This document shows positions 19,507 to 24,727 of a DNA stretch of 64,000 bases, piece after piece. The stretch is from assembly GCA_965248355.1 (NCBI GenBank), contig OZ252098.1:1376001-1440000 (forward strand). The letters run 5' to 3'. This stretch comes from Candidatus Latescibacterota bacterium (lineage in GTDB: Bacteria > Latescibacterota > UBA2968 > UBA8231). The position numbers and the translations under genes were made by a program. The stretch's first letter is position 1; each line of letters begins with the position of its first letter. The notes beneath the pieces were generated by a model that saw nothing but the letters and a program-made list of their open reading frames with translations, did no database searches and was not told the DNA's origin.

Positions 19507-20871
19507 GGCTCATCCGGGATTACTGTGGGTAGCCCCAACATGTTGTGGTCGCGGGTAGAGGTCGAGTCCGCCGCAATGGAAGTAGATGGCGGTCTGGAAG
19601 TTCGTGCGGTTGCGATAGCCTCGGGCCAGGCGCTTGACCTTCTCCACCTGGGCGTTCACCGCCTCGTTGAGGGCGTTGGTGATCCGGTGTCGCAGGTAGG
19701 TCAGGATGTTGTCCAGGCGCCGCTTCAGCGTGCGGGCCACGGCGATCACCGGCGGCAGACGGCTATGGGTGGCCCAGAAGTACCAGCGTCGGAAGAAGCG
19801 ACGGGCCCACCCTTCCCGGCGGTAGGTCCACAGCTGGCGCAGATTCTCCTTCAGGGCCCAAGCGCGGCTGACCTGCAGGTCCATGGACCGCAACTCCTCG
19901 AACCGGGGCAGCAGGGCCTCGGGGATCCGGTCGGGGTGGTAGAGCCACAGATACTTGGTCCCCGTGAGGCACCTCGTCGTGCTGGGCCCGCAGCTTCTTG
20001 TGTTCTTGGCGGCGCACCCGGTCGACGGCCTCATTCATCAGTCGCAGGACGTGGAACTTGTCGAACACGATCTTGTCCTGGGCGTCGGGCACCCAGGCTT
20101 TCACGGCCGCGATGTAGGGGTCGTGCATGTCCAGGCAGATGGCCTCGATCCGCTCCAACTCCTCTTCGTCGAAGGGGAGGAAATACGCCTCCAGACTCTC
20201 CCGGCCCCGACCGTCGGCCACGTGTTCCACGCTCTGGGTCTGCAGGTCGCAGACCAGGGTCATGTACCGGTGGCGCTTGGCGAAGGCCTTCTCGTCGACG
20301 CCGAGATGGACCGGCACCTTCCACACCTTACGGCGCTGACCCCGGTCCACGGCGCGGCCCATGACCCCCCCACAGCGATCCCAACTGAGCCCGGTGAGGC
20401 GGCTCACCGCCTCGAGGCTGCACTCCTTGGCCAAGTCGATGACGTGGGCCTCCAGGGCCCGGGTCAGACCCGAGCCGGGCTCGGCCCACTCGGAGGCGAT
20501 GGAGAGCACGCCGTGGACCCGGCACTGGACCCGGGGCAGGCGGGTATGGACGTAGGTCGGCAGATCGCAGGTGTCCAGATGGCGCCATTCCCGCTCGGGG
20601 GCATGGTCGTAAACGGGACACCAAGCGTCACAGCGCGGGCAGCGCATTTTGACCCCGCGCTCATGGTCCACGTAGACATCGACCCGCTCCTGGTCCTGGA
20701 ACCGCACCTCGAGCACGATCCAGGGGCGCTCGATGCGAAGCAGACGGGCATAGAACTGCTTGAGGTCGTCCATGGGCGGCCCTCCCCGATGGCGGTGGCA
20801 AGGGACTGCGAGGCTCGATCCCTATGATACCACAACATCTTGGGGGTCCCCACTCTCAACCCGGATGAGCC
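19507..20871 (-). mobile_element. ISL3-family element
   Basis: Terminal IRs GGCTCATCCGGG...; 8-bp target duplication AGGAATCT at 19499-19506 and 20872-20879. Confidence 0.95.
19510..20773 (-). pseudogene. ISL3 transposase, frameshifted near 19970
   Basis: CPRC, WRHLD, PRV.C..HG, LGVDE, DMH.PY, FDKFHV in ORF 19763..20773; continues TKYLWL...ITNA..EA.N..V...KR.ARGYRN in ORF 19510..20034. Confidence 0.9.
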
Positions 20872-21291
20872 AGGAATCTACGCTGGCGTTCCCCCCCGCG
20901 TCCATGCCCAGTTGGGAGACCTTGGAAGGCTGGGCTCGCTCTCAGATCCAGGACCTGCTGCAGCGAGTGTTGGAGGAGGAGGTGACCGAAGTGCTGGGGC
21001 GCACGCGGTATGCGCGCCGATCGGCGGTGGACGGCCCTCCGGGCTCGCGCAACGGCTATGGCAAGCCGCGGCGGCTGTCCCTGATGTCGGGCACCATCGA
21101 GGTAAGACGGCCGCGGGTCCGGGGGCTGGAAGAGCGCTTTGAGAGCCGCATCCTGCCGCTGTTCCAGCGACGCACCCGCGAGGTGACCCAGCTGTTGCCC
21201 GAGCTCTACCTGCACGGGCTGTCGCAGGGCGACTGGAGTTGCCCCCGTTTGGTGGACATCCCCGATATTTGGGCAAAAGGAGGATGTCCTC

Positions 21292-21606
21292 ATGCCACAG
21301 TCTCACCGTCCGTATCCGCCTGAGTTCCGCCAGCAGATGGTCGAGCTGGTGAGAGCCGGGCGGACCCCCGAGCAGTTGAGCCAGGAGTTCGAGCCCTCGT
21401 CCCAGGCGATTCGCAACTGGGTGCGCCAGGCGGATCGCGACGAGGGGCGGGGAGCCGAGGGAGTCACCCGCGCCGAGCGGGACGAGTTGCGGCGCCTGCG
21501 CCGGGAGAACAAGCGCCTGCGCACGGAGCGGGAGATTCTGTCAAAAGCCGCCACCTGGTTCGCTCGGGAGGCCGATTCGAGGTCGTCGAGGTCTTCGGAT
21601 TCGTGA
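21292..21606 (+). CDS. IS3 transposase OrfA
   Basis: YPPEFRQQMVELVRAG...IRNWVRQ...ELRRLRREN..L..EREIL.KA..WFA. Confidence 0.93.
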   Translation: MPQSHRPYPPEFRQQMVELVRAGRTPEQLSQEFEPSSQAIRNWVRQADRDEGRGAEGVTRAERDELRRLRRENKRLRTEREILSKAATWFAREADSRSSRSSDS

Positions 21607-23282
21607 GCGCTCACCAGGATCAGTATCCCATCGCCACCATGTGCCGCGTCCTGGGCGTCTCCCCCAGCGGGTACTATGCGTGGCGCCGCCGGCAGCCGTC
21701 GGCGCGCTCCTTGTCCGATGCGCAGTTGACGCCCTTGATCGACCAGGTCCACACGTGGTCGCGAGGCACCTACGGGGTGCCGCGCATGGTCCGGGAGTTG
21801 AGAGCTCGCGGACAGCCCGTCAACCCCAAGCGCGTGGCTCGCCTGATGCGGGAGGCCGGCTTGCAGGGCGTCAGCCGCCGCAAGTCGACGTGTACCACGC
21901 GGCGCGACGCGGACGCTCCGGCGGCGCCCGACCTGGTCGACCGCGACTTCGCGGCGGCCGGTCCGGACGCGTTGTGGGTGGCGGACATCGAGCGCCACGA
22001 GGCGCTGTGGCACCGTGCGGTGGTGAAAGGCCACCGCCTTCAGTCCGTCGCAGCGGGCTGACGTAGCTGAGGGCAGCCGGATCCCAGGGGACGCGGGAGA
22101 AGGCGACAAGCCGCCCTGACAAAGCCGGGACGGACCAGCACCGTCAGATGGGCCGGGTCCGGCGAGCGAGACAGGAAGGTGTACGCAAGGAACCAGTGTC
22201 AAACGCCCCTCAGGAGACCCACCAGCTCGAACCTGACGGATCCGGGCTGGGTTGCGGTGCGCACTGGCACCGGAGTGGTGCCGGAAACTCCCGCGTCGGT
22301 CGATGTCGCCGGCAGGGAGGCCACGGGGAAGGACTGCGGCGTAACCGTGGCGATACCGCAGGGGCATAGTTGGGCACCTCCCCTGTCGAACGGTGGAACA
22401 GGGAACGTGGGAACCCTCCCAGCGGCCCCACCCCGGTCCGCTTCGGGCGGACCGGCGGGAAGGCTCGTCGCCAGCTGATGCCGAGGGGAGGGGGCGGAGG
22501 GGCCGTAGTAGTCCGAGGCCGGGAAAGCCGGTCACATGGCGAAGGACCCCAGCGTGTTCGCAGCCACGATACATCCCATGGAGGCCGCTGATGAACATCG
22601 GCGCACCGTGGCCCGACCTCGAAGAGGCCGAGCCCCGGGTACGAGGAATGCAATCGAAGCTGCACCAGTGGGCGGTGGCCACTGAGCCGCCACCCATCGG
22701 CATGAACACGGGGAGAGCCGGATGCGGCGAGAGTCGCACGTCCGGTTCGGAGGGCGGACCGCAGAAACCCACTCGTTGCGAAACGAACAGGGCGCTGCGG
22801 TCCGACCCTACACCTACGTGCCGACGTGGTCTGGATTCCTGTATCTGGCCGTGGTCCTGGACGCCTGGAGCCGGCGCGTGGTGGGGTGGGCCATGGCCGG
22901 TCATCTGCGGACGGAGTTGGTCGTGCAGGCCTTGGACATGGCCCTCGGGCAACGACGTCGTCCGGAGGGGGTGATTCATCACTCGGATCAGGGATGCCAG
23001 TATTCGTCGCTGGCCTTCGGGCGCCGTTGCCGGGAGGCCGGGGTGCGGCCGTCGAGGGGCTCGGTGGGCGACTGCTACGACAACGCCCTGTGTGAGAGCT
23101 TCTTCGCCACCCTCGAGTGTGAGCTGCTCGACCGTCGCTGCTTCCCGACGCATGAGGTCGCCCGCCGCGAGATTTTTGACTACATCGAGTCTTGGTACAA
23201 CCGGCATCGCCGTCACTCGGCCCTCAACTACGAATCGCCGATGAACTTCGAACGCGCCCATGTCCAGCCGCAGGTTGCCTGA
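21603..23282 (+). CDS. IS3 transposase OrfB (exons 21603-21989 and 22812-23282; 285 aa after splicing)
   Basis: MCRVLGVS.SGYY, YG.PRM, LWVADI|TYVPT..GFLYLAVVLD.WSRRVVGW, HHSDQG.QY, DNA..ESFFATL; both exons are in phase and open. Confidence 0.88.
21990..22811 (+). ncRNA. Group II intron lacking its RT/maturase ORF (822 nt)
   Basis: 5' GAGCG; DV GAGCCGGATGCGGCGAGAGTCGCACGTCCGGTTC at 22715-22748; DVI with bulged A at 22805 and AC 3' end. EBS1 GATGTC (22302-22307) pairs with IBS1 GACATC; EBS2 ACCCAC (22217-22222) pairs with GTGGGT. Confidence 0.92.
22591..22704 (+). pseudogene. Vestige of the intron-encoded protein (about 30 N-terminal codons)
   Basis: GGAGG RBS, then MNIGAPWPDLEEAEPRVRGMQSKLHQWA, resembling intron-RT N-termini; no RT motifs follow before DV. 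Confidence 0.7.
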
Positions 23283-24399
23283 TGCGGGATCTGTTCGCCA
23301 TGAAGCGGATCTTCCCGGGCCCTCCCGGGACCAGCCGGTGCTCTCCCGACCACCCGGTCTCTCGCACCGGGCCGGGGCGCCACACCGGTACCCCGAGCTC
23401 CACCCGGGCTCCGGGGCCGGGGTACTCCCACTCTACAACTTCCACATTCGGCAAAACCTGCCGAAAGCACTTAACTGTCCACCGTACGGGGGTAGCTCCA
23501 GACTTCGAGTTGGCCTTGCGGGGTCTGCTGGGGGGCGCCCCTGTCGGCCTCGTCCATCGCCCGTCTGCGGGCCACGTGGGAAGAGCAGTTCGAGACCTGG
23601 CAGCAGCGGCGGCTGGACGACCGGGAGTTGGTCTACGCTTGGGCCGACGGTATCTACGTGAAGGCCGGCCTGGAGAAGGACAAGGCGGCGTTGCTGGTCG
23701 TCATCGGAGCCCTGAGCGACGGCCGCAAGGAGATCCTGGCGATCCGTGCTGCGCGATCTTCGGGACCGCGGGCTGCCGGCGCCGCGGTTGGTGCTGGCCG
23801 ATGGCGGCCTGCCGATCTGGAGCGCCGTCGACCAGGTCTGGCCCGAGGCCGCGCAGCAGCGCTGCTGGAATCACAAGATCCTCAACGTGCTCAACGACCT
23901 GCCCAAGCGCGTGCAAGGCGCCGCCCGGGCGCTGCTGACGCAGATCCCCACGGCCAAGACCCGTCTGCAAGCCCAGAGACGACGCGACCGCTTCGTGGCC
24001 CGCTACGGCGAGGCCTATCCGGCCGCGTCGGCCACCCTCGAGCGCGACTGGGAGCGCATGGTCACGTTTTGCGACTTCCCGGAGGCGCACTGGAGGCACC
24101 TGCGCACCACCAATCCGGTGGAGAGCCCCTTTGCCTCGGTCCGTTTGCGGACCAACGCGGGCAAACGCTACAAGCGGGTACAGGGAGCCACCGCCCTCAT
24201 CTGACGCGTGCTGAGGGTGGCCGAGACACGATTCCGCAAGCTCAACGCGCCGGAGCTCCTGCCGGCGGTCTACGCCGGACGGAGATGCCAGGACGGCCAA
24301 CCCGTCCAAGGGTTGTCCTCCACCGAGGAAGGAATCAAGAGGGCCGCCTGATCTCGTTTACACACCTTTTGACAGGACCTCCCGTCAGCGATTTGCCTG

Positions 24400-24562
24400 A
24401 CGCCGCTGCAGGCCTTCAAGAAGGGGGTCCCAACCAAGCCCCGAGCCAAGGAGGCTGCCATGCAGAAAATCGCCGCCTAACCCTCATCCCCGAGCAGGGG
24501 CGAGTGTCAGGTCATTACCGTCACTGTAAACCCCGAGCCCAGGTCATTACCATCACTGCACA
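24400..24562 (+). mobile_element. Probable IS481-like right-end remnant with a duplicated terminal motif
   Basis: TPLQAFKKG...KIAA* tail, then CAGGTCATTACCRTCACTGYAMA twice (24508-24530, 24540-24562). Confidence 0.5.
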
Positions 24563-24564
24563 CC

Positions 24565-24727
24565 AGTTCGTTAACCCTCTGGCGCTCGCGCAGGGCCTCC
24601 AGAGCCACCTTGGCTCCTTGACCTGTGCCGAATGCGTCTTCTTCCTCGCCATCCAGGCCCCTCCGGACAGTGGTTCGGTGCACGCAAAGTCTCGCTTAAC
24701 CACCTGTCCAGGACTTGGGGTGCATCA
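24565..24727 (-). mobile_element. IS3-family left-end remnant
   Basis: TGATGCACCCCAAGTCCTGGACA end, then a frameshifted OrfA start MARKKTHSAQVK..KVALEALRERQRVNEL. Confidence 0.65.

Follow-up and report, generated by a model that had tools for sequence, protein, structure and literature searches.

In vivo, group II introns of bacteria as a rule depend on their maturase. Among the described systems, RmInt1 of Sinorhizobium meliloti, whose host insertion sequence (IS) belongs to another family than IS3, offers the nearest parallel to the element considered here. According to two reports, RmInt1 lacks an endonuclease domain and homes in the sense orientation within the transposase gene of its host, ISRm2011-2, and its authors hold that poor splicing limits the spread of this host (PMC3035460, PMC4238363); even with the intron-encoded protein (IEP), splicing in vivo is given as 0.07% (PMC3035460). 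A second system is found in Thermosynechococcus elongatus, where the mobilization of TeI3 introns without open reading frame (ORF) by TeI4 IEPs acting in trans is documented experimentally (PMC2882425). The present analysis concerns a stretch of 64,000 nucleotides (hereafter the window) from a Candidatus Latescibacterota bacterium (assembly GCA_965248355.1, contig OZ252098.1, positions 1,376,001 to 1,440,000 of the forward strand), in which an ORF-less group II intron interrupts the transposase gene orfB of an IS3-family element. The best overall explanation, to which a probability of about 0.8 is assigned, is an orphaned, non-autonomous intron of an IS3-homing lineage; its identity as an ORF-less group II intron derived from that lineage is in itself practically certain.

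The intron splits orfB on the sense strand at WVADI|TY (exons joined: ...LWVADI|TYVPTW...), and the interrupted codons are those of the first Asp motif of the IS3-family DDE transposase. The 5' exon ends in ...TGTGGGTGGCGGACATC at 21989 (last six nucleotides GACATC, 21984-21989) and the 3' exon begins at 22812 with ACCTACGTG / ACCTACGTGCCG. On contig 88 of a genome from the same genus (G004), the same IS is present at 94-96% identity with no insert and reads ...GGCGGACATC|ACCTATGTG across the junction, so that the 822 nt represent an insertion into a pre-existing site. The Rfam model RF00029 matches positions 22713-22811 with 63.3 bits (gathering score 40, E 4e-10), with no non-canonical pair flagged, and this is the sole Rfam match within the window. 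The Rfam D1-D4 models did not match the intron even at E values up to 10. The following features define the element:

21990..22811, plus strand: ORF-less group II intron, 822 nt (empty site in G004; homology to full-length relatives)
22715..22748, plus strand: domain V, AGC triad present (Rfam alignment)
22751..22809, plus strand: domain VI with bulged branch A at 22805 (Rfam alignment; comparison with relatives)

An earlier note on this DNA had proposed a group II intron without reverse transcriptase (RT) in orfB, with canonical domains V and VI, a branch A and a non-canonical 5' end, and had named an Rfam scan and folding as checks. This is borne out, and precise splicing would join exons of 129 and 156 codons and restore the reading frame.

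The 5' end of the intron, GAGCG, departs from the group II consensus GUGYG, and a literature search for group II introns with a GAGCG 5' end returned nothing relevant, as judged by title. A lineage scan with the 5' intron motif, covering one genome per species, gave 80 loci (81 matches) out of at least 120 stretches, mostly from Actinomycetota. Among the 81 matches listed, the 5' end is GTGCG in 60, GAGCG in 16 and different in five, some of which are perhaps not introns. Since 16 of the 81 sampled relatives share A2 and several of them possess intact IEP genes, GAGCG is regarded as a trait of the lineage and not as decay. By this comparison it marks a living branch and is no lesion, and the variant gives no ground for excluding group II identity. 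Thirteen of the 16 GAGCG loci listed follow an IS3-type W-x-x-D-x motif (such as LWVADI, LWVSDI or VWLTDI, with T-Y or T-E in the 3' exon where this was recovered), two follow HWEGDL of IS30, and one has no exon within the locus. The Pfam domain HTH_21 lies upstream in five of the 13 IS3-site loci, and six of the 13 IEP frames examined are uninterrupted between the start region and the conserved C-terminus.

Other members listed reside in ISL3, IS110, IS630 and IS4/5-type transposase genes, in genes for a tyrosine recombinase and a relaxase, in the YADD codons of group II RT genes and in a few ordinary genes; over all loci listed, the upstream Pfam domain belongs to a mobile element in 24 cases and to a non-mobile gene in four, two of which lack a group II 5' end. 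The IEP of the relatives ends in a conserved maturase-type C-terminus, introns of 2.15-2.2 kb leave no room for an endonuclease domain, and the one cognate IEP that was scanned, a damaged copy in G017 (L018), contains RVT_1 and GIIM only. Very probably, the lineage of the window intron encodes an IEP without endonuclease domain and has the W-x-x-D-I|T-Y/E codons of IS3-family transposase genes as its natural homing site. Two loci, L064 (with two matches) and L080, hold members inserted into the RT gene of a different group II intron, at its YADD codons, a twintron-like arrangement, and L064 contains a further member 1.4 kb upstream, at the H-D-L-R motif of a tyrosine recombinase. L072 and L089 follow ...TFLFTD(V/I), which by eye resembles the Asp motif that binds metal in class III nucleotidyl cyclases and would point to a non-mobile host gene; a Pfam search with the short upstream piece of L072 (85 residues) gave no match.

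The recognition of the target is explained by two exon-binding sites (EBS) and their intron-binding sites (IBS):

21974..21979, plus strand: IBS2 GTGGGT (-16..-11; core TGGGT at -15..-11), complementary to EBS2, with covariation
21984..21989, plus strand: IBS1 GACATC (-6..-1), complementary to EBS1, with covariation
22217..22222, plus strand: EBS2 ACCCAC, in an internal loop of domain Id, with covariation
22302..22307, plus strand: EBS1 GATGTC, in the 9-nt loop of a 5-bp hairpin, with covariation

In the window, EBS1 and IBS1 pair at 6/6 positions and EBS2 and IBS2 at 5-6/6; the spacing of 4 nt between IBS1 and IBS2 is kept throughout the lineage. EBS1 reads GATGTC in nine of the ten IS3-site GAGCG rows of a lineage alignment (A1). 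Elsewhere both partners change together, for EBS1 with IBS1 in L036 (AGTGTC, GACGCG), L067 (TGGGTC, GACCTG) and L088 (TACGTC, GATGTG), and for EBS2 with IBS2 in L099 (AGCCA, TGGCT), L036 (ATCCA, TGGAT), L067 (TCCCG, TGGGA) and L087 (GCCCG, TGGGC). Covariation was assessed on 48 non-redundant loci, namely 55 with a 20-nt exon minus six interrupted ones and one exact duplicate. The mean of the longest complementary run is 5.31 for cognate combinations, compared with 3.75 (EBS1) and 3.62 (EBS2) for non-cognate ones, and the observed means were not attained in any of 2000 permutations, whether for EBS1 or for EBS2; the loci are related and not independent, and the test is therefore read as strong support rather than as a probability. 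The guides assigned in the earlier note are hence correct. TGG occupies -15..-13 in all 16 alignable rows of alignment A1, which comprise IS3, IS30 and IS256 sites (three interrupted rows were set aside), which places EBS2 opposite the Trp codon of the first catalytic motif and EBS1 opposite its Asp region. The suggestion that the intron is aimed at the catalytic motif accordingly holds at the level of the lineage, where the IS3-type and IS30 positions counted above prevail among the GAGCG relatives.

The remainder of the ribozyme is likewise preserved. Intron positions 1-691 are 72-79% identical to full-length relatives and positions 705-819 are 81-88% identical. An RNAalifold consensus of domains I-IV from 14 sequences contains 169 pairs, and compensatory changes occur at 81 of these. 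Of the 169, the window intron forms 152, breaks 10 and has gaps at seven (152/162 scorable pairs). The consensus delimits domain I as follows:

21990..22410, plus strand: domain I (end approximate), closed by CCACG/CGUGG and a 14-bp stem (RNAalifold consensus)

The minimum-free-energy fold of the single sequence, which pairs the 5' end into a local hairpin, was set aside, as the alignment fold gives the long-range domain I stem instead. At near-invariant columns, defined by an agreement of 90% or more among the other sequences, the window intron matches 288 of 299, and the relatives deviate at 0-31 of about 300. Its ten broken pairs compare with 1-7 in Actinomycetota-type relatives (n=11) and with 9 and 8 in its closest relatives, G124 and G166, respectively. 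The view that decay has gone further in the window copy than in its relatives, based on the ten broken pairs and 11 column deviations, was dropped as a firm claim after G124 and G166 had been scored.

The coding part of the intron has been lost almost completely. Of the RT/maturase gene that a mobile group II intron carries in domain IV, only about 30 N-terminal codons are left, beginning with MNIGAPWPDLEEAE and ending ...LHQWA; GGAGG at 22580-22584 precedes the ATG at 22591.

22591..22680, plus strand: remnant of the IEP gene, about 30 codons, in domain IV (aligns to N-termini of the relatives' IEPs)
22681..22694, plus strand: deletion junction, about 13 nt without counterpart in full-length relatives (alignment; same in G124 and G011)

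Compared with L099 about 1350 nt are absent, and homology resumes about 35 nt before domain V. The frame downstream of the remnant is junk and runs through domains V and VI into exon 2. The earlier description of an IEP cut to about 30 codons is thereby confirmed.

The same short form is found in two other genera. A copy of 820 nt in another genus (L157 1501-2320; G124:C1:1767959-1768778) is 93% identical and has the same junction, and a fragment in G011 is 84% identical, again with the same junction, and has a different EBS1 loop. The G124 copy interrupts not an IS but the type I restriction specificity gene hsdS (Pfam Methylase_S) at ALWVRDF|KGND. With IBS2 TGGGT and IBS1 GACTTC, the latter forming 5/6 pairs with the same guides, this is an ectopic site which mimics the IS3 target. 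One deletion junction at two or more sites implies that the short form spread with an IEP supplied in trans. A full-length relative of 2154 nt, of the parent type, exists in G166, again another genus (L158, G166:C164:6817-8970); it is 88% identical and lies at LWVSDL|TYVPTW of an IS3 homologue. In G017, introns of 796 nt carry an independent deletion of similar extent, and L048 possibly represents a further short form. In this lineage, stripped-down copies arose at least twice, once for window, G124 and G011 and once for G017, and both events kept domain IVa and the first 25-30 IEP codons. In the phylum, eight of 168 genomes have a match to the intron, all from one family; none of the nine other genomes of the same genus has one. 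A metagenome scan for more copies with the deletion junction gave three loci, all of them chance matches that resemble the intron in the scan motifs alone and lack an RF00029 match.

In its own genome (G000; one contig, 5.5 Mb, rated 95.7% complete) the intron is present as a single copy by both blastn and RF00029. A Pfam GIIM search of the genome found nothing and suggested that no maturase is present, a view given up when TIGR04416 detected two IEP genes 10 kb apart, at G000:C1:4181444-4182541 and 4191433-4192545 (L002 and L003; about 342 and 340 bits). Both lie next to or near a D1D4-6 class RNA (174.9 bits), which comes upstream of one of them. No RF00029 match accompanies either gene; the two are 34-36% identical to a G017 IEP of the related IS256-homing branch and belong to another class. 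No cognate driver IEP was found in the genome with TIGR04416. None of the cognate IEPs detected within the bacterial family is undamaged: the G166 gene has two in-frame TGA stops, two IEP copies in G017 lack the RT palm, and the copy in G015 is cut by another IS. As for the full-length IEP donor that the earlier note had thought of, the relative in G166 provides the full-length intron with its IEP broken, and the genome at hand provides no cognate gene. In each case the nonsense codon of the G166 IEP is TGA, and the relatives carry Trp (TGG) there. In G000 the window element is probably orphaned and immobile.

The host element spans 21234-23500 and shows the hallmarks of the IS3 family, with HTH and rve domains, an orfB in the -1 frame, terminal repeats and a 3-bp duplication:

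20880..21233, plus strand: 5' part of an IS256-family (Mutator-type) transposase gene, host of the IS3 element (Pfam Transposase_mut, E 1.8e-11)
21231..21233, no strand: left target duplication GAC (read in the sequence; one copy restores the IS256 frame)
21234..21259, plus strand: IS3 left inverted repeat, TGGAG... (22/26 positions equal the reverse complement of the right end)
21292..21606, plus strand: IS3 orfA, 104 aa (Pfam HTH_Tnp_1, E 1e-9)
21543..21547, plus strand: A-AAA-G, candidate -1 frameshift site from orfA to orfB (frames read; orfB in the -1 frame)
21603..21989, plus strand: orfB exon 1, 129 codons, ends in WVADI (Pfam HTH_21, E 6e-20)
22812..23282, plus strand: orfB exon 2, 156 codons and stop, DDE catalytic core (Pfam rve, E 5e-18; rve_3, rve_2)
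23475..23500, minus strand: IS3 right inverted repeat, ...CTCCA (read in the sequence)
23501..23503, no strand: right target duplication GAC (read in the sequence)

A-AAA-G is a frameshift motif used by IS3 elements. The statement of the earlier note that the IS keeps its inverted repeats, target duplication, orfA and a spliced orfB of 285 aa is correct. Removal of the IS3 element together with one GAC restores the IS256 frame ...LSQGD|FELALRGLLG..., as in the G017 homologue.

The region 20880-24700 is therefore nested three deep, with the intron in the IS3 and the IS3 in an IS256-family transposase gene. The latter shifts frame near 23745 and, compared with the G017 homologue, lacks a stretch around ...AIRPGYRESKESW..., which indicates that the host IS256 is itself dead. 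At 23640-23657 it contains an empty version of the site which relatives of the intron occupy in G017, G015 and L087 (TGG GCC GAC GGT ATC | TAC), and the last six bases of this site could pair 6/6 with EBS1 of the window intron, two wobble pairs included. Immediately upstream of the region, the minus strand carries an ORF that looks ISL3-like by eye (19763-20773). Elsewhere in the genome, at G000:C1:2057062-2057809, a further copy of the IS3 element (82% identity, same left end) is an internal-deletion derivative, in which the first 56 nt are joined to the 3' part about 1-5 nt from the intron site, with CCT microhomology at the joint. The position of this joint may be a coincidence or a trace of imprecise intron loss.

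Taken together, the following course of events is proposed. In an ancestor, about 1.35 kb of the IEP gene was lost, while domain IVa and about 30 codons stayed. The short form would then have spread with an IEP acting in trans, as the two sites sharing one junction suggest, and one copy would have retrohomed into the IS3 element of the window, where EBS2 pairs with the Trp-codon region (-15..-11) and EBS1 with the Asp-Ile codons (-6..-1). With a single copy, no cognate IEP in the genome and the cognate IEPs of the family broken, as far as the searches reach, the intron would now be an orphan. Without its maturase, the intron is probably spliced inefficiently, if at all, in vivo, and translation of the unspliced mRNA would truncate OrfAB 23 codons into the intron, at an in-frame stop at 22059-22061, leaving this IS3 copy locked.

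A comparison with the described systems places the window element among mobile elements nested in one another, which is a known kind. RmInt1, likened here by description, agrees in the missing endonuclease domain and in the sense-strand site within an IS transposase gene; however, it has its own working IEP and is abundant and mobile, whereas the window intron is a lone copy devoid of an IEP. To TeI3 the resemblance lies in the deletion of the domain IV ORF, in shared break-points with recognizable N- and C-terminal ORF remnants, and in different sites with good EBS/IBS pairing, which imply mobilization in trans (PMC2882425). The shared junction (window, G124 and G011) and two sites fitting the EBS are found here as well; a driver IEP of the same lineage in the genome is not. 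In T. elongatus, 17 ORF-less copies and driver IEPs occur in one genome, and the parent contains an endonuclease (PMC2882425), in contrast to the endonuclease-free lineage of the window, whose short form is present once in each genome (G124 has two at the most) and for which the searches gave no intact driver. The full-length relatives (L099 from Streptomyces sp., L037 from Nocardioides carbamazepini, L108 from Rhodococcus phenolicus, and G166) share GAGCG, the W-x-x-D-I|T site and 72-88% ribozyme identity, but are 2.15-2.2 kb long with an IEP gene of about 470 codons, about 1350 nt of which the window intron lacks. IStrons also combine a ribozyme and a DNA transposon that travel as a unit; unlike the window element they are described as group I introns with an IS200/605-type transposon (PMC4227781), spliced as a whole from host transcripts, whereas the window holds a group II intron within a transposase gene, and its removal from the transcript would benefit the IS itself.

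The alternative that survives best, although improbable, is a maintained, splicing-gated IS3 element, in which the intron self-splices or uses a maturase in trans and both rides on the IS and limits its transposition. Several observations favor it and weigh against an orphaned, non-splicing intron. The catalytic parts look intact, with the domain V triad, the branch A, the stem that closes domain I and both EBS in place, in line with the pairs and columns conserved across the ribozyme, and the intron may self-splice or be assisted by the two heterologous IEPs. In a genome rated 95.7% complete, a cognate IEP might also have escaped the search. The IS ends, orfA and both orfB exons are intact; the exons contain no stop and, over the 285 orfB codons, differ from the G004 copy by 17 synonymous and 15 non-synonymous substitutions, a pattern which on the sequence level fits past purifying selection. 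RmInt1, said to limit the spread of ISRm2011-2, provides a precedent (PMC3035460, PMC4238363).

A further point on the same side is an analogous arrangement in G017, where an IS256 element with the 796-nt ORF-less intron at WADGI|YVKAG is present in four copies, 99.8-100% identical over 2172-2176 bp (L014-L017; G017:C1 near 147 kb, 207 kb, 1.369 Mb and 3.555 Mb). Each copy has its own 8-9 bp duplication, and its transposase frame is intact once spliced; between the copies at 147 kb and 207 kb the flanks and target duplications are exchanged, which indicates an inversion. No empty copy of this IS was found in that genome, the next most similar IS being at most 83% identical. Two histories would give this pattern, namely transposition of the whole composite, or saturation of all homing sites by the intron before its IEPs decayed; such intron-IS composites may thus stay transposition-competent. 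The best comparative support for an intron riding on an IS comes from G017 and not from the window.

For the window itself, the balance tips the other way. The genome holds one full IS3 copy and one intron copy; other IS3 copies with the intron, for which the earlier note had suggested a search, were sought in the genome and none was found, the only other copy of the IS being the internal-deletion derivative. No cognate IEP is present in the genome and none found in the family is intact. Four public runs, examined as contigs only, gave no spliced RNA. The X9 and X11 contigs carry the window sequence with no differences and no joint. In X13 (kind unspecified), two contigs with a depth of 20.3 show a joint 21988->22811 that skips 822 nt; as an intron-less DNA copy of the IS exists in G004, this joint is not readable as splicing. 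X1, a sponge metatranscriptome, yields contigs that match the ORF-less intron at about 95% identity, its deletion junction included, with a different upstream exon and possibly by DNA carry-over; ligated exons were not seen in the X1 contigs. Three of the 11 deviations of the window intron represent the lineage consensus in X13 contigs, two of them also in X1. In addition, RmInt1 is reported to splice at the very low level quoted above even with its IEP (PMC3035460). That the window intron still splices at a useful level in vivo is thus unlikely. Nothing marks this copy as the working, selected composite that the earlier note had envisaged, and the idea that the intron throttles its IS, put forward there, had already been published for RmInt1 in ISRm2011-2 (PMC3035460, PMC4238363).

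Mobility maintained by the two heterologous IEPs at G000:C1:4.18 Mb, acting with relaxed specificity as TeI4h does for TeI3, is very improbable. Both genes score above the TIGR04416 cut-off, driver IEPs of relaxed specificity exist in T. elongatus (PMC2882425), and the empty IS256 site could pair with EBS1. However, the two proteins share only 34-36% identity with the G017 IEP and belong to another RNA class, D1D4-6, the intron has remained a single copy, and this near-cognate site in the window is unoccupied.

That the 822 nt are no intron at all but an unrelated insertion with a chance domain-V-like hairpin, as could be supposed from an Rfam match confined to the last 99 nt and the silence of the D1-D4 models, is refuted by alignment over the whole length with dozens of RT/maturase-bearing introns, by covariation of the helices and of EBS/IBS, and by the precise absence of the insert from the relative's IS in G004.

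The preferred reading of an orphaned, non-autonomous intron accordingly leaves the wider interest with the lineage. It is a large lineage without a matching Rfam D1-D4 model, which resides within genes belonging to other mobile elements, frequently at the codons of catalytic motifs; of particular note are its GAGCG branch, its guides that read Trp and Asp codons in three DDE families, the loss of the ORF more than once with domain IVa retained, and the G017 composites. Tentatively, an IS with an ORF-less intron could multiply as a composite, its transposase being made from spliced RNA only and splicing relying on the ribozyme itself or on a borrowed IEP in place of a cognate maturase. With a lineage that reads the Trp and Asp codons of IS3, IS30 and IS256 transposase genes, G017, whose only cognate IEPs are RT-dead, would be the live example and the IS3 element of the window the single-copy case. 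If the G017 composites do transpose as units, they would provide a natural system for studying group II splicing in bacteria without an own maturase, and for asking whether introns restrain insertion sequences or merely ride on them.

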